Shown one piece after another: positions 2,441 to 12,568 of a stretch of 12,568 nt of DNA. Position numbers and translations under genes: made by a program. Within the stretch, counting starts at the first letter, position 1. The number at the start of each line of letters is the position of its first letter. The DNA lies in the IMG/VR virus record IMGVR_UViG_2740892115_000002, one strand, 5' to 3'. The notes under the pieces were generated by a model. It worked only from the letters and a program-made list of their open reading frames with translations. It did no database searches and was not told the origin of the DNA. This stretch comes from a virus (lineage: Duplodnaviria > Heunggongvirae > Uroviricota > Caudoviricetes).

Positions 2441-2670
2441 CGGGTCCTTCCTGGAATTATGGCCCGTTACGGGGCGGCGACCTCGCGGTTTTTCGCTATT
2501 TATGAGATTTTTTGAGGGGGTGGTTGTTGTTTAATTGTTTGGTATATCTAATTGATAAGTAAGGTAAAAATAAAATAAATACAACAACCTTACGATGTAT
2601 TTTGATGTCATTAATGTGAAAAAATTCAATGATATCAAATGGTTTTGTAAAAACACATGGTTGTTGTATC
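2441..2670 (+). other. cos-like site A (rightward orientation): lambda-type cosN plus GGTTGTTGT repeat set
   Basis: 2462-2487 gcccgttacg|gggcggcgacct|cgcg matches the lambda cosN and 12-nt cohesive end GGGCGGCGACCT as I recall it (core 2472-2483), followed by TTTTTCGCTATTTATGA as in the lambda left end. Inward repeats GGTTGTTGT at 2522-2530 and 2659-2667, inverted ACAACAACC at 2581-2589, with AT-rich spacers. Confidence 0.6.
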
Positions 2671-2844
2671 GCGTATTTGATGGCGTAACAGAAAGTGATT
2701 TTTAACTTTACCGCTCTGTAACTACGGATTATTCCATGCTGGCACGGAGAACGGCTACGGCATGACGCCACCCAGCCTATACAGAACAGTAAAGCCGATA
2801 AATTGTTAATCACGCGCAGCAATGCGTGTGATTTTTGCACACTT

Positions 2845-3038
2845 CCGGTTAACGGGTACGATGTCCGGTTTTAGTGTCTGTTTTTTGCGCATGTCCGGTT
2901 CATAGAAAGCATGTTTTTATATTTTTCATATGGTTAACTTGCAGAGAAACCGGACATGGATCCCGGAAAATTTTCATAAATAGTGAAAACGCGCGAGGTC
3001 GCCGCCCCGTAACGGGCCATAATTCCAGGAAGGACCCG
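2845..3038 (-). other. cos-like site B (leftward orientation): lambda-type cosN plus ATGTCCGGTT repeat set
   Basis: Read on the minus strand from 3038: cosN (core 2996-3007), then CGTTTTCACTATTTATGAAAATTTTCCGG, which is nearly identical to lambda sequence just inside cosN from memory. Then ATGTCCGGTT-type repeats at 2948-2957, 2891-2900 and 2861-2870 in a direct/inverted/inverted pattern, spaced roughly 50, 105 and 135 bp from cosN, reminiscent of lambda R3/R2/R1 with an AT-rich stretch between. Confidence 0.65.
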
Positions 3039-3039
3039 T

Positions 3040-3062
3040 AAAAAAGCCGGATTTCTCCGGCC
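3040..3062 (-). terminator. Rho-independent terminator after the late-type operon
   Basis: Stem gccgga/tccggc (3047-3052 / 3057-3062) with loop tttc. On the minus strand it is followed by a 7-U run (plus-strand A-run 3040-3046). Lies immediately after the stop of the 137-aa ORF. Confidence 0.7.
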
Positions 3063-3067
3063 TTGTC

Positions 3068-3481
3068 TCAGATGGTTTTCAGTATGCGATCGATGTCGCC
3101 GTCATCGCCCTGGTTTCTGCCATCGTATGCCATGCCAGCTGATACGGCTTGCGGGCTGTGCATGTCCATAAAGTTTTCAAAGGCTGCGGTAAGCTCTGGT
3201 GCAACCTTTGGGCGCTCCTGCTCTATGGTCATGTTCAGGATTTCACGAGCATTATCGACGCTAATACATGGCACGTTTGCCATTGCACGTAACAGCGGCT
3301 GATAGTCTTTATGCTCATGAAGCGCCATAATCGCATCAGCGCGCGGCTTGTCCTGCTCTTCCAGTTTGTTTAGTTGATATACGGCCTCATAGGTTGATAA
3401 ACCTCTGTCAGCCATTGCCCGCGCTTCGGCTTTAAATTTACTCGCCAGCGGTAGCGTCATGATGCTTTCATTCGTTGCCAT
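3068..3481 (-). CDS. Hypothetical 137-aa protein, last gene of the capsid operon
   Basis: ORF 12 nt downstream of the gpD-like gene on the same strand, followed by the terminator. No family recognised. Confidence 0.55.
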   Translation of the reverse strand: MATNESIMTLPLASKFKAEARAMADRGLSTYEAVYQLNKLEEQDKPRADAIMALHEHKDYQPLLRAMANVPCISVDNAREILNMTIEQERPKVAPELTAAFENFMDMHSPQAVSAGMAYDGRNQGDDGDIDRILKTI

Positions 3482-3493
3482 CGTTCCCCCTGC

Positions 3494-3829
3494 TTATCGG
3501 GCCAGCGGCTGAACGGATACGCCGGAACCCGCAAAGGCGGCGCATTTTTTCGCATCGGTGTCGACGCTCTCAGGCCAGTTAACGGCGGCAATATTGAATA
3601 TCCCCGTCTTGTAACACTGTGCTGATTTCTGCTTTGACGTGTCCACAGGGTACGAGGTCAGATAAACAGCCTTGCCAGATTCCTTACCATCCCACGGCTT
3701 AAACTCGCCATTGTCCGCCAGCATCAGCGGGGTAAATTCCTGAATAACGCCAGCATCAGCGGCAAAATGTACCAGCGTCGTGGCGACCTGCTGACTGCCT
3801 GCAAATAACTCAATGTATGGAGTGTCCAT
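3494..3829 (-). CDS. Head decoration protein, lambda gpD-like (111 aa)
   Basis: Size and motifs resemble lambda gpD from memory: TPLMLAD, WDG, YKTGIF...WPE, KKCAAFAGSGVSV versus lambda TPLMLD, WDG, YKSGTF...WPE, KKRTAFAGTAISIV. Confidence 0.75.
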   Translation of the reverse strand: MDTPYIELFAGSQQVATTLVHFAADAGVIQEFTPLMLADNGEFKPWDGKESGKAVYLTSYPVDTSKQKSAQCYKTGIFNIAAVNWPESVDTDAKKCAAFAGSGVSVQPLAR

Positions 3830-3840
3830 AGAATCCCCCG

Positions 3841-4896
3841 TTAACCAATTTTGACGGTAACAAATTTGCGAATATCTGCCGGAACCGGCTGCGGTGCGCT
3901 GTGCGTCTGCACGTACTCAATCGCCGGATCGCCGTCCTCAATCCAGTTTTTCGGGTAAAACATGTTTTGCGTTGCGCCCGTTCTTACTGCGTCCTGATCC
4001 ATAATCGCACCATAGGCCACCAGCCCTTTATTGTTGGTGTTGCCCAGGACAAGCAAATCAGGCTCAAGGAAATATTTTTCTGTGCCGTCGCTGTCAGTGT
4101 ATTTGCCGGAATAGACGATAAGGGCAATATCGCCCAGATAGCCTTTAAAGCTCACCACTTCGCCCAGGTTTTTACAGGCCAGCTCTGCGGCGGACTCTGA
4201 ACCACGGGAAAGATCGTACAGCTCACGGAATTTTTTAAAGCTGCGTAACGTTCGCCATACCTCAGCGCCCATAATCATGACGTTTGCGGGGCAACCAGCC
4301 TGATCGGCGTATAGTTCGATATCATAGATTGGATCGTGGGTTTCTTTGTCCTGCTCTGACCATTTTTTCCCGTCGGCCTGCTCTATGATGTTTTTTTCCG
4401 GTATCTTCCAGTCGATTTCATAGCGCTCTATGCCTTCGCCTTCAATGATGTTTTTTCCGGTCGTTACCGCATTTACCGCCAGCCATTCCACGCGCGCTTT
4501 TATGGCGTTTATCTGGCGGCGCATATTGCCAGTAATCAGGCGCATACGGCGATAGGTAGGGTCGTTAAGCTGTGCCGGATCTTCTCCAGCCATGCGCATG
4601 ATGGTTTTCGTTGGATCGATTTCGTGCTTTGGCTTCATGTAGCCAGGTTTAATCGTGCTGGTTTCGTACCCTTTATCGCGCTGAACCTGGCTACCCACCA
4701 TAGGCGAACAAAACGCCGACATGGTGACTTCTTCAATGTCCAGGGTATCCAGCATGATGTTTTGCGTGCTGAATGTCGCCACGTTCGGGAAAAACAGCGT
4801 GGTAAACAGCGGACTGAATTTAAATTCCGCAATATCCCCGCGATTCAGGTACGCAAAAAGCTGGTTAGTGTTAAGTGCCATTGCTTTTACTGTCAT
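3841..4896 (-). CDS. Major capsid protein, lambda gpE-like (351 aa)
   Basis: Multiple conserved blocks shared with lambda gpE as recalled: FKFSPLF..LFF, KPGYMKPKHE, EDPAQLNDPTYRRMR, WSEQDKETHDP, RGSESAAELACKNLGEVVSFKGYLGDIALIVYSGKY, VLGNTNNKGL.AYG, YPKNWIEDGDPA, SAP. Start overlaps the upstream ORF stop (TAATG). Confidence 0.88.
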   Translation of the reverse strand: MTVKAMALNTNQLFAYLNRGDIAEFKFSPLFTTLFFPNVATFSTQNIMLDTLDIEEVTMSAFCSPMVGSQVQRDKGYETSTIKPGYMKPKHEIDPTKTIMRMAGEDPAQLNDPTYRRMRLITGNMRRQINAIKARVEWLAVNAVTTGKNIIEGEGIERYEIDWKIPEKNIIEQADGKKWSEQDKETHDPIYDIELYADQAGCPANVMIMGAEVWRTLRSFKKFRELYDLSRGSESAAELACKNLGEVVSFKGYLGDIALIVYSGKYTDSDGTEKYFLEPDLLVLGNTNNKGLVAYGAIMDQDAVRTGATQNMFYPKNWIEDGDPAIEYVQTHSAPQPVPADIRKFVTVKIG

Positions 4897-5102
4897 TATT
4901 CACCCCCGTGAACCTGATTCATACCCAGCGCCGCGCGTAAATAGGCGCGTACCTGCCAGCCTGTTGACGGCTCAACCATCGCCAGCGGATCAAGTCCTGC
5001 CGCAATGCCTGCTTTTACGTTCTGCTGGTGGCGTTCCTTGAGCGCCTTCACGATGTCGGGGCTTATGTACACCGAAATACCGCCTTTTTTCTCTTCAGCC
5101 AT
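4896..5102 (-). CDS. Hypothetical 68-aa protein, first gene of the capsid operon
   Basis: AGAGGAA Shine-Dalgarno-like sequence upstream of the ATG at 5102. Stop overlaps the capsid start by 1 nt, suggesting translational coupling. No family recognised. Confidence 0.5.
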   Translation of the reverse strand: MAEEKKGGISVYISPDIVKALKERHQQNVKAGIAAGLDPLAMVEPSTGWQVRAYLRAALGMNQVHGGE

Positions 5103-5137
5103 AGTAAGAAATTCCTCTTTGACTTAAAAAATCATAA

Positions 5138-5187
5138 CTGGATGTTCATCCAGCTCTGATTATAATCAGGATTGCATTTTGTGCAAT
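5138..5187 (-). promoter_or_regulatory. Candidate late-operon promoter overlapped by three adjacent palindromes
   Basis: Palindromes ctggatg-tt-catccag (5138-5153), ctgattataatcag (5156-5169) and attgca-ttttg-tgcaat (5171-5187). On the minus strand, TATAAT (5164..5159) with TTGCAC about 16 nt upstream (5186..5181), placing a start site about 50 nt upstream of the ATG at 5102. Confidence 0.45.
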
Positions 5188-5265
5188 GATATTGAGTTGT
5201 GTTGCAAATTATGAAATGATTATCCCGATCATGTGTGTCAGTGCACCAAAAAGCCTCATATGCAA

Positions 5266-5305
5266 AAGCCCGATAAGCCACCTCTGACCTTATCGGGCTT
5301 TTTTA
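5266..5305 (+). terminator. Plus-strand rho-independent terminator with no annotated plus-strand gene upstream
   Basis: Stem aagcccgataag / cttatcgggctt with an 11-nt loop, followed by TTTTTTAT on the plus strand. Confidence 0.5.
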
Positions 5306-5469: not shown

Positions 5470-5492
5470 GAGGACCCGTAAAAAAGCCGGAT
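5470..5492 (-). terminator. Rho-independent terminator after ssb
   Basis: Stem gccgga/tccggc with loop ttgc, followed on the minus strand by a U-run (plus-strand A-run 5470-5476). Nearly identical in sequence to the terminator at 3040-3062. Confidence 0.7.
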
Positions 5493-5517
5493 TGCTCCGG
5501 CTTCTGTCTCTCGTCGC

Positions 5518-5940
5518 TTAAAACGGTATGTTATCCCCGTACGGATCATCATTCCCCGCCTGTTGTTTTGCCCTGTTCAGCGCGTCAGTAGCCTGGCCCT
5601 GTTGACCTTTTTTGCCGCCCAGTCGCGCCGTTCGCGCACTGATTACACTGTCTGCGATAACCTGCCAGCCCTGCCGCGTTTCTCCGTTCTGCCCAGTCCA
5701 CTGGCTGATCTGCATGTTACCCGCCACGCTCAGGAGTTCACCCTTGCGGTGCCTTTCCAGTGCTTCGGCCTGTCTGCCAAATGCCAGGACGGATAACCAC
5801 ATCGTCGCCGTTCCGTCATCTGCCTGGCTGCACGGAAGGGGGACCGCCATACGCGCCAGCGTCATCGGTGTGCCCTTGCTGGTCTGTTTTACCTGCGGGT
5901 CGTCCACCAGCCGCCCGTAAGCTGCTATCTGTGCTGTCAT
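5518..5940 (-). CDS. ssb: Single-stranded DNA-binding protein (SSB-like, 140 aa)
   Basis: OB-fold-like N-terminal region with SSB-like blocks (LSVLAFGRQAEALERHRKGELLSVAGNMQISQWTGQNGETRQGWQV), Gly/Gln-rich linker, and acidic C-terminal tail ending DDPYGDNIPF, comparable to the DDDIPF tail of E. coli SSB. Confidence 0.8.
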   Translation of the reverse strand: MTAQIAAYGRLVDDPQVKQTSKGTPMTLARMAVPLPCSQADDGTATMWLSVLAFGRQAEALERHRKGELLSVAGNMQISQWTGQNGETRQGWQVIADSVISARTARLGGKKGQQGQATDALNRAKQQAGNDDPYGDNIPF

Positions 5941-6259: not shown

Positions 6260-6495
6260 CCCTTGTCTACCTTATCTACCTTAGTGGCCCTCATGCCAGT
6301 AATGGCGCGGCTTTCAGCGGGGTAGAGTGCTTTTATCCACTATCTACCCCGTGTCTACCTCCCTGTCTGATTCAGGTAAAATCAGGTAGAGAGGGTAGAT
6401 AGTGGGTAGACAGTAAAAAAAGGCTATCTACCTAACTTAATGCACTGAATTAAATGTATTTTTCTTTACTCAGGTAGACAGGGTAGACAGCAATT
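6260..6495. repeat. Replication origin-like iteron array (about 11 copies of the 7-bp unit TCTACC / GGTAGA in both orientations around an AT-rich core)
   Basis: gtctacc and atctacc at 6265-6280, ggtagag at 6321, atctacc and gtctacc at 6342-6359, ggtagag-ggtagat-ggtagac at 6386-6411, atctacc at 6426, ggtagac-ggtagac at 6474-6489, with an AT-rich segment at 6434-6471. Located immediately 3' of the primase-helicase gene, as in satellite and PICI origins. Confidence 0.7.
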
Positions 6496-6503
6496 ACAAA
6501 AAA

Positions 6504-8258
6504 TTATAAAAACGCGTCGCACTCGTCTGTTGTTATTGCGTTAGTCTGCGTTACCCCCTTAACTTTCCGCGTAATATATTCATGTCCGTAAACTTTTGCG
6601 GCAGGCTTCATAGCCTTTCCAAAGTCATTTACGTTTAGCGGTTTGCTCCTGCCTGCGTATGCCATAAACGCCAGATAGACGCGGTAAAGGCTGTTCCTGG
6701 TCGTGTACTTCACTGAATCGCCACCGCCCCCCATCATCAGGCCGCGCGCTTCCTCCAGAAAATTCAGGAACTGGCAAAACTCAATAACCGGATCCGTCTG
6801 TTGCTTTATTGCCAGTGCTTCATCACCGTCACGCTGTTCCAGTAGTAAAGCCCGTGCCTTCTCAGGGTCGGTAAAGTTCGCCAGCAATCGGCGGATAATG
6901 ACAGGGATTTCAGCCGCGATCTTTTCCGGTAGCTCCCTGTCTTTTTCGGCCTCACTGACGATATTGTCGAAACGGAAAATCACGCGACGACGTGCCACAC
7001 CTCCGGCCCGTTCGGTGAATATCATCGGGTTATTGTTGGTCGCCAGCACCACCGCCCTGATTACAGCCGTGAAACGCTTTTCGTATTTCGGGTTAATTTC
7101 CACGGGGTCACCGCCCGTGATTTTCTTGATGCCCGTTCCTTCGCCTGTATATTTCGGCTGGTCAGCCAGGACGATAAGACGACTCCCGACAACCTGCGCA
7201 CGTCCACCAGCATCATCAAGCGATGTCATTTCAGCGCTTACCGTGTTCTGTTTCCCTGCCAGAAGGCTGGCTATGTGCGTGAATGTACTTTTACCGCTCC
7301 CGCCGTCTCCGGTGGCCTCAATAAACATCTGCCAGTCGTACCGGTTCGCCATAATCATGTACAGCGCGGCACATATACGCATCATCTTGCGCGGGTCTTT
7401 TCCGGCTGCGTGCTCAAGCCATTTATGAAAGTTTGGCGCGTTATCGCGGATGTTCTCCCCTGGTGCTGGTGGCGTGTACTCAATGCCGTTGTGCGTGGTG
7501 ATCCAGTTCTCCGGCGTGTGCGGGGAAAATCCCCCCGTTTTCAGGTCAAGCGCACCATTGGCGAACGGCAGCAAATCGCCGGACGGCTCGCCCATTGGTT
7601 CGGCAATAACTTTTAACGCTTCCACGGCGTTATTGATTACGCGCTTGCTGAAAGTGGCCCTGTGCTCTGAATAGATCGCCACCATTTCGCGGCTAAGTTC
7701 CATTGTGCTGACCGGACACCATACCCCGCCGCGCCATACGTGAACGATTTCACTTTCAGGATGTACGCAAACGCCATCAAAGCGATCGGCAAGCAGCTGC
7801 GCGCGCTCACTGTCCGCCATCTGCGAAAGTTGCGCCTTTTGCTTTACCGGAAGCTCAATGACCAGACCATCAGAAAGATTCTGGCGCTCACGGGCCAGAT
7901 ATTCGCGCCAGTTCTCCACCTTCTGACCGTGCATACCATCAGGGTAAAAATTTGCATCCTGTACGCCTGCCGCCGCCAGCTTCTGGCCAATCGCCTTTAT
8001 CATTACTGGCGCAAGATATCCGGCCCTGAATATGCGCACGGATTTTCTGCCTTCCGGCACAATTTGCAGCTTATCCAGTTCTGATAACTGCTGCTCCCCA
8101 AGCCACACAGGAGGCTCATTATCTCCGGCCATACGCGCATCATGTTCCTGCCATTGTTTCGCGTGTGCCCAGGCATCACTACCCGCAAAAATAATGACTT
8201 CTGTTCCTTTGTGTTTTATGCCGCGTGACTGCTGTTTTACGTTCGGTGCCAGTTTCAT
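6504..8258 (-). CDS. Replication initiator, P4 alpha / D5-family primase-helicase-like (584 aa)
   Basis: Walker A motif GDGGSGKST and downstream D5/P4-type helicase-like blocks. Size and position (upstream of iterons) fit a pri-rep gene. AGGGG Shine-Dalgarno-like sequence; start overlaps the upstream ORF stop (ATGA). Confidence 0.8.
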   Translation of the reverse strand: MKLAPNVKQQSRGIKHKGTEVIIFAGSDAWAHAKQWQEHDARMAGDNEPPVWLGEQQLSELDKLQIVPEGRKSVRIFRAGYLAPVMIKAIGQKLAAAGVQDANFYPDGMHGQKVENWREYLARERQNLSDGLVIELPVKQKAQLSQMADSERAQLLADRFDGVCVHPESEIVHVWRGGVWCPVSTMELSREMVAIYSEHRATFSKRVINNAVEALKVIAEPMGEPSGDLLPFANGALDLKTGGFSPHTPENWITTHNGIEYTPPAPGENIRDNAPNFHKWLEHAAGKDPRKMMRICAALYMIMANRYDWQMFIEATGDGGSGKSTFTHIASLLAGKQNTVSAEMTSLDDAGGRAQVVGSRLIVLADQPKYTGEGTGIKKITGGDPVEINPKYEKRFTAVIRAVVLATNNNPMIFTERAGGVARRRVIFRFDNIVSEAEKDRELPEKIAAEIPVIIRRLLANFTDPEKARALLLEQRDGDEALAIKQQTDPVIEFCQFLNFLEEARGLMMGGGGDSVKYTTRNSLYRVYLAFMAYAGRSKPLNVNDFGKAMKPAAKVYGHEYITRKVKGVTQTNAITTDECDAFL

Positions 8259-9449: not shown

Positions 9450-10732
9450 AAGCCTACCCCCTGACGAATACGGGCAGCAAATACCATCACGCAGCCAGCC
9501 GGAGATTGCTGGCGTGCTTCCTGTTCGCTGGTGGCCTCAATGGTAATCACGCGCGGTTGTGCCGTGCTCAGGGCGATAAAACGCCAGATGTATTTATTCA
9601 GGTTGTGCGAGTCCCGCCCTTGCGGGTGTGTGGTATGATTTAACATAGCTACCTCGATACTTTCGCTATCGTTGGTGGTTAGAAGCCCTGCGAGTGGTAA
9701 CGACACTTGCGGGGCTTTGCATTTATGCACCTTGATAATCTCAAGGTGTGGCCCACTATATGCTTTAGGTGTGGCCCACGTCAAGGGTTTTATTTGTGCT
9801 TTTTCTGTGTATACTGTCCCCCACCAATCCAACAGAGGAATAGAAATGGCAACGGGTACAACAAACGCAAAATCACAAGCTCTAAAGGCTCGTGTACCAC
9901 ACGAAATAGTAAACGCCATGGAATCAGTGAAAGAATCAGGCGAAAGCACATCACAATTCATCATTGCGTCAATGCAAGGCGAGATCAAACGCCGCCAGCG
10001 CCGCAAGGCCAAAGAGCAGGAGTAACCATCACCAGCGCCGTGGTGTGAGTAACTACGGCGCATTGCTATGCAGGACAACACAATGACCGATAAAGAATTG
10101 ACCAAAACATTATCACCGGCACGGAAAAGACGGCGCAGAAAGATAGAGCATGAATCAGAAAGATTCGCGCCATGTGCTTTTGCCCTTGAGCAATTCCTTA
10201 AAGAGTACAGGGAAAAGCGCTCATTGCAGGTATGGCAACGAACTGAACCTGACTGATTGCATTGCCCACCAGCCGCAAATGTGGCATTGTTGGCAATGCT
10301 CATGCGTTGGGGATAACGTGTAGCTTGTGTCGAGGGGCCACCGTAGCGGGTGGCCTTTGTTTTGCCCGTTATTCGGCAATTGTGGCGCTTCTCCACATGG
10401 TTGATATAATCCCACTGCTCAGATTCATTTTTTGCGCAGTAGGTTAATTGTTCACAAAGGCGCTCCGGCAACGGGGCGCTTTTTGTTTTTATTAGTTTGT
10501 AGAAACCTGACTCAGAGATAATGCTCATATTCTGATTGCCGTCAGGGGTGTAAGTTAAATTTACTCCCTTTTTATCATCAAACATCTGCAACGCTCTGGC
10601 GTTAACAATATTGGTTTCACTCCCGCCAGTAAGGCCGGAAATAACCGGAATAATTTCGGCAAAATTTTGCAGATTCTGTTTTTCAGGACGAACGAAGCCC
10701 CGCCCTTGTTCGGGAGAATATCCAGTATTCAT
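9446..10732 (-). CDS. Uncertain 428-aa open frame; likely a real N-terminal domain (about 115 aa from 10732) and/or a short C-terminal gene (possible start 9643, 66 aa), with the middle unlikely to be coding
   Basis: The N-terminal part has normal protein-like composition (NLTYTPDGNQNMSIISESGFYKLI, faintly like phage antirepressor N-domains). The central part is Cys/Arg/Ser-rich and antisense to two plus-strand small ORFs with good Shine-Dalgarno-like sequences. No in-frame stop until 9446. Confidence 0.3.
   Translation of the reverse strand: MNTGYSPEQGRGFVRPEKQNLQNFAEIIPVISGLTGGSETNIVNARALQMFDDKKGVNLTYTPDGNQNMSIISESGFYKLIKTKSAPLPERLCEQLTYCAKNESEQWDYINHVEKRHNCRITGKTKATRYGGPSTQATRYPQRMSIANNATFAAGGQCNQSGSVRCHTCNERFSLYSLRNCSRAKAHGANLSDSCSIFLRRLFRAGDNVLVNSLSVIVLSCIAMRRSYSHHGAGDGYSCSLALRRWRRLISPCIDAMMNCDVLSPDSFTDSMAFTISCGTRAFRACDFAFVVPVAISIPLLDWWGTVYTEKAQIKPLTWATPKAYSGPHLEIIKVHKCKAPQVSLPLAGLLTTNDSESIEVAMLNHTTHPQGRDSHNLNKYIWRFIALSTAQPRVITIEATSEQEARQQSPAGCVMVFAARIRQGVGL
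9744..9779. promoter_or_regulatory. Divergent control region with two direct 13-bp repeats AGGTGTGGCCCAC (9744-9756, 9767-9779)
   Basis: Repeats 23 bp apart in the intergenic region between the minus-strand small-ORF operon and the plus-strand RHH-like gene. A TATACT -10-like hexamer at 9811-9816 lies upstream of the plus-strand ATG at 9846. Confidence 0.5.
9846..10025 (+). CDS. Small ribbon-helix-helix-like DNA-binding protein (59 aa), candidate island repressor or regulator
   Basis: AGAGGAA Shine-Dalgarno-like sequence 5 nt upstream of the ATG. Sequence pattern of a beta-strand followed by two helices (KSQALKARVPHEIVNAMESVKE...STSQFIIASMQ) and a basic tail RRQRRKAKEQE. Family assignment is by pattern only. 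Confidence 0.5.
   Translation: MATGTTNAKSQALKARVPHEIVNAMESVKESGESTSQFIIASMQGEIKRRQRRKAKEQE
10083..10256 (+). CDS. Possible small basic protein (57 aa from the ATG at 10083; the ORF is open from 10068)
   Basis: AGGA 7 nt upstream of the ATG at 10083. Contains an RKRRRRK stretch. Weak support. Confidence 0.3.
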   Translation: MTDKELTKTLSPARKRRRRKIEHESERFAPCAFALEQFLKEYREKRSLQVWQRTEPD

Positions 10733-10784: not shown

Positions 10785-10973
10785 TTAGTGAACTGCCTCG
10801 CAGCTGTCCTTCCATGCCAGAACTTCGGATAAAGACCAGCCAACGGAACGACCGCCCAGCTTACGCCGTGATGGGAATTGTCCGGCTTTTTCCAGGCGGT
10901 ACCGACATGAGCGGCTCAGGCCTGTAAGTTGCTGACATTCTTTTTCACGTATAAAGCGATCTGTGCTTAACAC
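10785..10973 (-). CDS. alpA: AlpA-family (phage Xis/MerR-like) transcriptional regulator, 62 aa
   Basis: Matches the AlpA pattern as recalled: LTGLSRSCRYRLEKAGQFPSRRKLGGRSVGWSLSEVLAW versus AlpA TG..R.TIY......FP....LG.KSVGW...EI..W. Position next to the integrase is typical. Confidence 0.75.
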   Translation of the reverse strand: MLSTDRFIREKECQQLTGLSRSCRYRLEKAGQFPSRRKLGGRSVGWSLSEVLAWKDSCEAVH

Positions 10974-11338: not shown

Positions 11339-12568
11339 TTATATTTCTCTGGCTATTGGCAATGTGGTTACGTTTTCATGTGTTCCCGCCAGTATCCCTA
11401 ACCGCTCCGTCCACATATCCAGCGCGTCACGTTTCGCATCCAGATAACGGGAATGGTTATAGACTCGTTGCATCCCTGGCATCTGATGACCTGTAAGCTG
11501 CTCCACGACGTGAGGATCCACGCCTAAATCGTTCAGCATCGTTGTAAAGGTGCGCCGGATGTCATGCAGTGACCAGTGAGGGTGTTTTAGCCTCCTGTGC
11601 GCTAATCTGCCGTACTGCGACACGCTTGTTTCCTGTTTCACTTCCCCCAGCAATAAGCCCGTGTGCCTGTTCTGCTCCACCAGCTGCGTGACGAACGGCA
11701 GTATTGCTTCCGGTATGGGCCGGAATATTGCCACCTTCGTTTTGCTGTGTTCTTTCGGCACGGTCCAGAGCATTTCGGTAAAATCCCACTCGCTGATCTC
11801 CGATAACCTCAGTTCTACCGTCCGGCATCCGAAAACAATCAGGAGGCGGATTAGTGCGACGTAGTAAGGGGAAAATATTTTTTTGTCCAGTGCCTGCAAT
11901 AATTCGCCAAGTTCTTTGGTGCTTAAGACGCGCTCGCTTATATCCGGTTTTTTCCCAACGTCCGCCACACTCATATCATCAAGAACGTTGCTGATTGCAT
12001 AGCGCCGCCTCCGGCAGAACTTAAGCGCCTGTTTGCACGTCTGTAGCAAGAATCCGGCAGTAACAGGCGTTCGCTTTGCCACCTGGTCAAAACAGGCCAG
12101 CCAGTGCCGTAGCTCGCATTTATCCAGCGGCATAGCACCAATGTGCTGTATTACGTGATTATTAAGGCGCTTTTTCAGGGCGGCATAATCCACGCGGTTT
12201 TCCTTTGCGTACGACTCAAGCCAGTAGGTGAGCGCATCGCCAACCGTTACCGGCTTTAACGCTTCCTGTACGGTGTAATTCATTTCATGACGTGGATTTT
12301 TCCCCTCTGCCAGCCATGCGCGACACTGGGCGGCTTTTTCCCTGGCTGATTTCAGGCTCAGATCAGGATAATTTCCCAGCTTAATGCGTTCCGGTGGTGC
12401 CCCCCTTCCCGTTCCGGCCCTGTAAGTGAAATACCAGGTTAAAAGGCCACTGGTTGAATGCCTGACGCTCAGGTTTCCACCGTCATTAAGAAAGGCTGTT
12501 TTTTGGGCGGGTGTGCCGTTGATTTTCCTCAGCTGTGTATCGCTCAGTTTGTTAAGTGCTCTGCTCAT
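11339..12568 (-). CDS. int: Tyrosine recombinase, P4-type integrase (409 aa; start codon at the window edge)
   Basis: N-terminal arm-binding-like region typical of P4-family integrases (DGGNLSV...W.F.YR......R..LG.YP..SLKSAREKA...AWLAEGKNP). C-terminal catalytic region includes HDIRRTF and HxxR...Y (RVYNHSRY). The start lies on the last base of the window, so an upstream in-frame start cannot be excluded. Confidence 0.9.
   Translation of the reverse strand: MSRALNKLSDTQLRKINGTPAQKTAFLNDGGNLSVRHSTSGLLTWYFTYRAGTGRGAPPERIKLGNYPDLSLKSAREKAAQCRAWLAEGKNPRHEMNYTVQEALKPVTVGDALTYWLESYAKENRVDYAALKKRLNNHVIQHIGAMPLDKCELRHWLACFDQVAKRTPVTAGFLLQTCKQALKFCRRRRYAISNVLDDMSVADVGKKPDISERVLSTKELGELLQALDKKIFSPYYVALIRLLIVFGCRTVELRLSEISEWDFTEMLWTVPKEHSKTKVAIFRPIPEAILPFVTQLVEQNRHTGLLLGEVKQETSVSQYGRLAHRRLKHPHWSLHDIRRTFTTMLNDLGVDPHVVEQLTGHQMPGMQRVYNHSRYLDAKRDALDMWTERLGILAGTHENVTTLPIAREI

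Follow-up and report, generated by a model that had tools for sequence, protein, structure and literature searches.

A conserved operon for capsid, decoration and putative scaffold-type proteins in a phage-inducible chromosomal island of the EcCICFT073 type

The stretch of DNA analysed here (hereafter the window), 12,568 nucleotides (nt) from the IMG/VR virus record IMGVR_UViG_2740892115_000002, contains a Gram-negative phage-inducible chromosomal island (PICI) of the EcCICFT073 type, located between phoQ and roxA. Four open reading frames (ORFs) of 68, 351, 111 and 137 amino acids (aa), in the order of their transcription, occupy positions 3068-5102 of the minus strand; the stop codon of the first and the start codon of the second overlap by 1 nt and the following gaps measure 11 and 12 nt, which indicates a single tight operon. 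It is closed on the same strand by an intrinsic terminator at 3040-3062, consisting of the hairpin GGCCGGAGAAAUCCGGC followed by U6 (-14 kcal/mol). An earlier interpretation of this DNA (hereafter the sequence-only reading) had described the operon as running from a promoter-like cluster to a terminator and as encoding homologues of lambda gpE and gpD in an order, E then D, which is the reverse of that in lambda. The ORF coordinates were found to be exact, and both homologies and the gene order were upheld by the searches described below. The earlier interpretation as a whole is partly supported.

The 351-aa protein (3841-4896, minus strand; the equivalent of c1499 of EcCICFT073) is a major capsid protein of the lambda gpE family with the HK97 fold, its profile matches being essentially full-length (Pfam Phage_cap_E, PF03864, 2e-52 over residues 26-349; PHROG 29, 3e-109). 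It aligns with lambda gpE at 44% identity over 328 residues (E 4e-95) with 2 gaps only, and this near-full-length alignment shows that it lacks the truncation that might be expected of a poison subunit. When compared with PDB 3BQW, a crystal structure titled 'putative capsid protein of prophage', it shows 3 differences in 350 aligned residues (99% identical). The phage capsid proteins that it matches are much more distant, with all 217 below 60% identity and the best at 47.8%. The 111-aa protein (3494-3829, minus strand; c1500 equivalent) belongs to the lambda gpD/phage 21 SHP family of head decoration proteins, as its score against Pfam HDPD (PF02924, 2.5e-17) is 63.5 bits, above the curated cut-off of 29.1; it also matches phrog_49 (1e-26) and is 36% identical to lambda gpD. 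Its best matches in the PDB are the head decoration proteins 1TD0 and 1TD3, followed by the lambda gpD entries.

The proteins at the two ends of the operon had been left unassigned in the sequence-only reading, with the suggestion that they could be factors in size determination or specificity. For the 137-aa protein (3068-3481, minus strand; c1501 equivalent) the guess of an assembly factor was well placed, and the protein proved to be assignable after all: its profiles identify it as a homologue of the non-catalytic C-terminal part common to lambda gpC and Nu3, an assignment that is new here. It matches phrog_1999, a family of unknown function (3.7e-65), and the extreme C-terminal end of phrog_53, the head maturation protease (1.7e-10), while lambda Nu3 itself matches phrog_1999 (2.7e-26) through its residues 117-200. 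Alignment of the 137-aa family with Nu3-type scaffolds using hhalign gave a probability of 96.8% (E 3e-10) over 108 columns. The sole phage match obtained with tblastn is in phage 204576, to the C-terminal tail of the ORF that immediately precedes D and E; as this ORF sits at the C/Nu3 position, the match falls at the corresponding gene position. Remote homologues of 195 and 270 aa are Nu3-like and contain repeated copies of the shared motif. The homology is to the C-terminal part of Nu3, and the full architecture of that protein, about 200 aa nested in frame within the protease gene, is absent: the 137-aa protein is encoded by a stand-alone gene following D and has its own N-terminus of about 45 residues, unrelated to Nu3. 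The operon order of E, D and Nu3-like gene is thus the reverse of the lambda order Nu3-D-E. The name 'phage head-tail connector protein', assigned to the 137-aa protein by PGAP/RefSeq, has no NCBIfam or Pfam support and was rejected. With a Nu3-like fourth gene, the cassette would encode scaffold domain, capsid and decoration proteins, that is, every protein contacting the capsid lattice other than the portal and the protease.

Structure prediction, which the sequence-only reading had put forward as a check, was applied to both of these proteins. The single-sequence AlphaFold2 (AF2) model of the 137-aa protein is helical, with a predicted local distance difference test (pLDDT) score of 44 that is too low for a fold search, and an exhaustive HMMER search with this protein gave 9 cluster representatives only, insufficient for a deep alignment. 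The model of the 68-aa protein (4896-5102, minus strand; c1498 equivalent), the product of the first operon gene, which is translationally coupled to the capsid gene, reached a pLDDT of 77 and has an extended N-terminus and two helices, with no significant fold match. This protein belongs to phrog_3255, a family of unknown function, and searches of Pfam, NCBIfam, PDB and PADLOC gave no match. Two allele classes of its gene were observed among related loci (L005-L084, see below), at 93-100% and about 66-68% identity to that of the window. The alleles assort independently of the capsid allele (94-100%), which points to a recombination breakpoint at the 1-nt overlap of the two genes; the 68-aa protein possibly has a partner-specific role.

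Expression of the operon may be governed by a conserved control region at 5126-5187, all elements of which lie on the minus strand. It includes a 17-nt perfect palindrome ATTGCAcaaaaTGCAAT (5187-5171) covering the -35 position, a perfect TATAAT (5164-5159) as the putative -10, a hairpin (5155-5136; -12.1 kcal/mol, z -3.6) placed after it and ahead of the first start codon, and a T-run (5131-5126) after the hairpin, with the Shine-Dalgarno motif GAGG following at 5117-5114. The upstream control region, about 170 nt in length, is conserved in 55 distinct upstream variants, whereas the DNA beyond it differs completely between islands. The palindrome and the hairpin with its T-run could represent an attenuator, an antitermination target or an operator. 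No match to the control region was found in phage genomes and an Rfam scan of the window was empty; a borrowed late promoter or antitermination site is unsupported, since the control region lacks such a phage match. Further upstream, a strong hairpin flanked by an A-run and a T-run (5262-5305, not assigned to a strand; -24 kcal/mol, z -4.9; inverted repeat I3) is conserved among the related loci and resembles a bidirectional terminator that would separate the operon from the replication module. The capsid operon together with its control region is bracketed by a direct repeat of 31 nt, with copies at 3031-3061 and 5471-5501 that share 97% identity and are composed of the terminator hairpin plus ACGGGTCCT; a degenerate cos-like sequence, as judged by eye, comes after the copy that lies past SSB. 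Recombination at these repeats could allow islands to exchange the cassette, which would agree with the mosaicism of the loci.

Conservation of the cassette was examined in 80 related loci taken from viral contigs, a capsid-protein scan of genome contigs having given no matches. The capsid gene is intact in all 80, the 68-aa gene in 79, the decoration gene in 78 and the 137-aa gene in 69 of these loci, with fixed spacing, and the shortfalls lie mostly at contig ends. The neighbouring primase ranges from 44 to 100% identity across the same loci, in which primase and SSB modules swap. Pairwise median ratios of non-synonymous to synonymous substitution (dN/dS) are lowest in D (0.10) and E (0.12), followed by the 68-aa gene (0.22) and the 137-aa gene (0.27); the cassette is under purifying selection. 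It is carried by 598 of 5,426 complete Escherichia coli genomes (11%), with up to five copies per genome. The order 68-E-D is kept in more divergent islands, including one in which E is 85% and the homologue of the 137-aa protein 41% identical, and in a Salmonella island (L085) with E at 68% and D at 55% identity, which adjoins a terminase (GpA) fragment and in which the 68-aa gene in the fourth slot has no detectable Nu3 likeness. The decoration gene is under the strongest constraint, and lambda gpD binds only expanded, DNA-filled shells; taken together, these suggest that shells containing the island capsid protein reach maturity. The ceiling of 48% identity to phage capsid proteins in the collection points to long retention in satellites and not recent capture. 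On this evidence from sequence comparison, the cassette genes constitute a maintained, functional and old satellite lineage, being neither decaying remnants nor recent captures.

These data also bear on an explanation in which the cassette represents captured helper head genes, retained as a copy since relatives of the island integrate inside late genes of the helper, E or A for example, and serving to replace a helper gene that is interrupted or poorly expressed; in a chromosomal island such as that of the window it would be largely redundant. Late-gene capture and such a backup role have been proposed in a 2023 survey, in which a capsid gene was present in 21 of 29 reference Gram-negative PICIs, making it the commonest late gene, and was dispensable for transfer (PMC10111431). 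The terminase fragment beside the Salmonella island is what a helper-embedded island would show, and the lack of a laboratory phenotype discussed below fits redundancy. However, the distance from all phage capsid proteins in the collection excludes a recent capture, the reversal of gene order relative to lambda with the direction of transcription kept is not that of a simple copied segment, and strong purifying selection together with the prevalence of the cassette in chromosomal islands argues against mere redundancy. A backup function is therefore considered improbable.

The island that carries the cassette was identified by megablast against complete E. coli genomes, in which the phoQ-roxA island of strain CFT073 shows 96% identity across 90% of the island. 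Known as EcCICFT073, the CFT073 island is the prototype of Gram-negative PICIs (Fillol-Salom et al. 2018 PMC6092414; 2019 PMC6739421); for this prototype, though not for the present variant, helper-dependent induction and high-frequency transfer have been demonstrated by experiment. The window opens with phoQ (1-1461; PhoQ_Sensor 2.7e-87) and nearly all the island genes are on the minus strand, as are the four backbone genes that follow. A tyrosine integrase of 409 aa (11339-12568; Arm-DNA-bind_3 and Phage_integrase) lies at one end of the island and is adjoined by an AlpA regulator (10785-10973; PF05930, 3e-18), a D5/P4-type primase of 584 aa is encoded at 6504-8258 (D5_N, DUF5906, Pox_D5) and SSB (5518-5940) lies between the primase and the four-gene operon. 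The distance between the phoQ stop and the int start gives the island a length of about 11.1 kb, the far attachment site falling outside the window. It thus has the size typical of Gram-negative PICIs (about 10-15 kb, without a full set of phage structural and lysis genes), an integrase at its end with a neighbouring AlpA, and a primase of its own with an adjacent candidate origin. Several short tandem repeats, whose units are 9-12 nt long (GGTAGACAG and CCTTATCTA among them), occur just downstream of the primase at 6261-6512, where the replication origin of a PICI is expected, and are consistent with iterons.

Besides the four-gene operon, the primase and the integrase were the only large proteins in the ORF scan of the island. 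No gene for a portal, protease, terminase or connector was found in the island when every other ORF was scanned with profile libraries, and its virion genes are limited to those of the operon, for capsid, decoration and a scaffold-like protein. The sequence-only reading was correct in stating that other head genes are absent.

Some further observations concern the remainder of the island. A 428-aa ORF at 9446-10732 matches the Icd-like family of transcriptional repressors in its last 80 or so residues only and anti-repressor (Ant) families at residues ~50-84; it is overlapped by two small plus-strand ORFs (9672-10025 and 10068-10256), both with PHROG matches, and the CFT073 annotation of this region has a 157-aa Icd-like gene and several small genes. 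The 428-aa ORF is probably not a single real gene. Between the cos region and phoQ lies a gene of 93 aa (2126-2407) belonging to PHROG 1561, of unknown function, which is conserved under purifying selection (dN/dS ~0.24); the corresponding block c1504-c1507 serves as a marker insertion site in the literature. The motif ATCAACGGGTTAGGC occurs twice (1911-1925 and 2064-2078), bracketing about 137 bp absent from CFT073, and its location near the phoQ-proximal end of the island may be tied to the attachment site.

Downstream of the operon, a lambda-type cos occupies 2967-3038 of the minus strand, its cosN GGGCGGCGACCT being exact at 2996-3007, and a second cosN GGGCGGCGACCT, again exactly that of lambda, lies on the plus strand at 2472-2483. 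The two form an inverted pair within 2441-3038, with arms of 72 nt that are 93% complementary, and about 97 lambdoid phage records contain a match to the cos core. The island therefore has the helper-type cos by which Gram-negative PICIs are packaged by the helper terminase, and two functional cos sites have been published for EcCICFT073. Between these sites CFT073 keeps rppA, a mimic of the small terminase subunit (TerS), whereas the window retains its last ~22 codons only (2711-2776). RppA adjoins the capsid operon in close relatives and is present in about 20 of the 80 related loci, roughly one-quarter; the packaging redirector of the Rpp type, which is not universal in the group, has been lost in the window. 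The flank at 2773-3038 is inverted relative to CFT073, and a unique AT-rich stretch with GGTTGTTGT/ACAACAACC repeats follows the left cos at 2513-2706. The rppA-less arrangement with the inverted flank was found in at least 14 complete E. coli genomes. In the Salmonella island, the order 68-E-D is followed by the different 68-aa gene and then, where Rpp sits in the E. coli islands, by a truncated TerS (9829-10164 of L085), a 111-aa protein that shares 67% identity with the first 111 residues of lambda Nu1 (TerS) and may hint at where the Rpp proteins came from. The window and EcCICFT073 are thus alike in their phoQ/roxA site, nucleotide sequence (about 96% identity), int-alpA-primase backbone, two inverted lambda-type cos sites and four-gene operon with the same protein sizes. 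They are unlike in the loss of rppA and the rearranged AT-rich segment between the cos sites in the window and in a PerC-family gene, present upstream of the operon in CFT073 only.

The cassette is, accordingly, already published as c1498-c1501 of EcCICFT073 and the observation itself is not new; what is new here is the Nu3-like fourth gene and the conservation of and selection on the cassette. In the original description (ISME J 2018, PMC6092414) the product of c1499 is named as a putative capsid protein and that of c1500 as one for head decoration, and its supplement gives c1498 as 68 aa and c1501 as 137 aa, sizes equal to those in the window. No paper assigning a function to the cassette was found in the literature.

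The sequence-only reading had proposed that the operon might build capsids sized for an 11-kb genome. In such a scheme the island capsid protein and a short scaffold would divert assembly into small capsids from which the helper genome is excluded, and the combination of an alternative capsid protein with a truncated scaffold (137 aa as against 201 aa for Nu3) does resemble Ccm of SaPIbov5 and CpmB of SaPI1, the latter being an alternative internal scaffold that shares the capsid-binding C-terminus of the helper scaffold. Small capsids are also made by PmCI172, a Gram-negative PICI with a homologue of a capsid protein (PMC6092414). The experiments on the near-identical EcCICFT073 nevertheless contradict this proposal, as the DNA packaged from a lambda lysogen with the island was all phage-sized, the island-monomer band was absent after induction of CFT073, transfer efficiency depended on an island size that multimerises to phage length (all PMC6092414) and deletions in the cassette, detailed below, were without effect. 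Four copies of the island (~11.1-11.2 kb each) would amount to about 45 kb by our arithmetic, which fits the lambda head and agrees with the phage-sized packaged DNA. Size redirection is hence the weakest of the alternatives and very unlikely, being in direct conflict with experiment and largely refuted for lambda as the helper.

Scaffold, capsid and cement homologues that are full-length and constrained most probably perform the usual jobs of such proteins, and the likeliest role of the cassette, proposed here tentatively, is that of a non-essential accessory which builds, or contributes to, full-size heads on helper portals. Following induction by a lambdoid helper, the operon would be expressed, and the helper would supply the portal, protease, terminase, connectors and tail. 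The scaffold-like protein may bring the island capsid protein to cores of helper portal and protease, where full-size heads, either of pure island capsid protein or mixed with the helper gpE, would form. The helper terminase would then fill these heads with concatemeric island DNA cut at the island cos sites and the island decoration protein would cement the expanded shell. The contribution would be accessory and masked where a laboratory helper already oversupplies heads. This role is supported, at the level of sequence, by the identity to the CFT073 island, the family matches, the intact loci, the dN/dS values, the prevalence of the cassette and its low identity to phage proteins.

Several points weigh against such a role. 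Genes E, D and Nu3 are already present in the helper, and deletion of c1499 or c1500 left both transfer by the native helper and interference with lambda unchanged (PMC6092414). It was considered whether the operon had been disrupted in all of the published marked islands (c1501::tetA, c1499::cat), which would weaken these negative results, and this was rejected for the tetA island; the Table S6 primers place tetA right after an intact c1501 stop codon, so that the c1499 and c1500 deletions are clean. In later engineering papers c1498-c1501 was swapped for cas9 or melA and phage 80 still transduces the island. The cassette is thus dispensable under every tested condition, with three laboratory or native helpers; no study reporting its proteins in particles was found, and the scaffold assignment of the 137-aa protein comes from sequence profiles.

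The deletion data are equally relevant to a role in interference, in which the island capsid, decoration and scaffold-like proteins would assemble together with their counterparts from certain lambdoid phages and poison the heads of these phages, thereby protecting the host population or favouring the island. Satellites commonly interfere with helper capsid assembly, the capsid homologue Ccm of SaPIbov5 blocking phage reproduction according to work cited in PMC6092414; a scaffold-like protein sharing the C-terminal domain of the phage scaffold could compete for the phage capsid protein, and purifying selection is compatible with defence. However, interference with lambda survived deletion of c1499 or c1500 and has been attributed to rppA (c1503), which accounts for it, and a PADLOC search gave no match to a defence family. 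Furthermore, a poison has no obvious need of a full-length capsid protein and of a strongly constrained decoration protein that acts only on mature shells. Interference is consequently regarded as unlikely, and accessory head building remains the preferred role of the cassette.

Comparison with known systems helps to place this arrangement. The cassette shares the families of its proteins with the lambda head genes (E 44%, D 36% and the C-terminal part of Nu3 by profile) and is unlike them in its reversed order, in a scaffold homologue that lacks the N-terminal part of Nu3 and is not nested in a protease gene, and in the absence from the window of B, the protease domain of C, W, FI, FII, Nu1 and A. 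Capsid-forming PICIs (cf-PICIs) likewise encode an HK97-fold capsid protein, and are described in a preprint (bioRxiv 10.1101/2022.09.08.507074) as encoding all the proteins of a small capsid and taking only tails from the helper. The island of the window does not belong with them, as it has shell components only, with no complete head and packaging module of portal, protease, terminase and connectors, and its prototype EcCICFT073 is packaged in phage-sized units, unlike the cf-PICIs as portrayed there. Among the staphylococcal islands, Ccm, a satellite homologue of the helper capsid protein in the account cited above, would be formally analogous to the 351-aa protein, and CpmB to the 137-aa protein. 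Neither is related in sequence to the window proteins, and both divert assembly into small capsids and hamper the helper; for EcCICFT073, small capsids have not been seen, nor has interference that depends on the capsid genes. In view of Ccm, CpmB and the frequency of capsid genes among PICIs, the strategy is less unprecedented than the sequence-only reading had held when it set it apart from those of P4 and the staphylococcal islands.

A more specific possibility, somewhat doubtful at present, is that the scaffold domain, capsid and cement proteins form a decorated shell of the island's own around a stolen helper portal and protease. If this is true, the island would stand midway, in evolution and in function, between the classical PICIs, dependent on the helper for everything, and the cf-PICIs, for which the helper provides tails only. 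It would also be independent of the helper capsid protein, for example where an embedded satellite interrupts the helper E gene, where that gene is repressed, or where it is targeted by capsid-sensing host defences, and such independence would explain the strong conservation of the cassette despite its dispensability in the laboratory. The capsid gene of the prototype has no known phenotype and yet is strongly conserved, a puzzle that becomes testable through the Nu3-like assignment. An answer would bear on the evolution of satellites from total parasitism towards the building of capsids of their own, and also on engineering, since synthetic PICIs carry cargo at this locus on the supposition that it is neutral.

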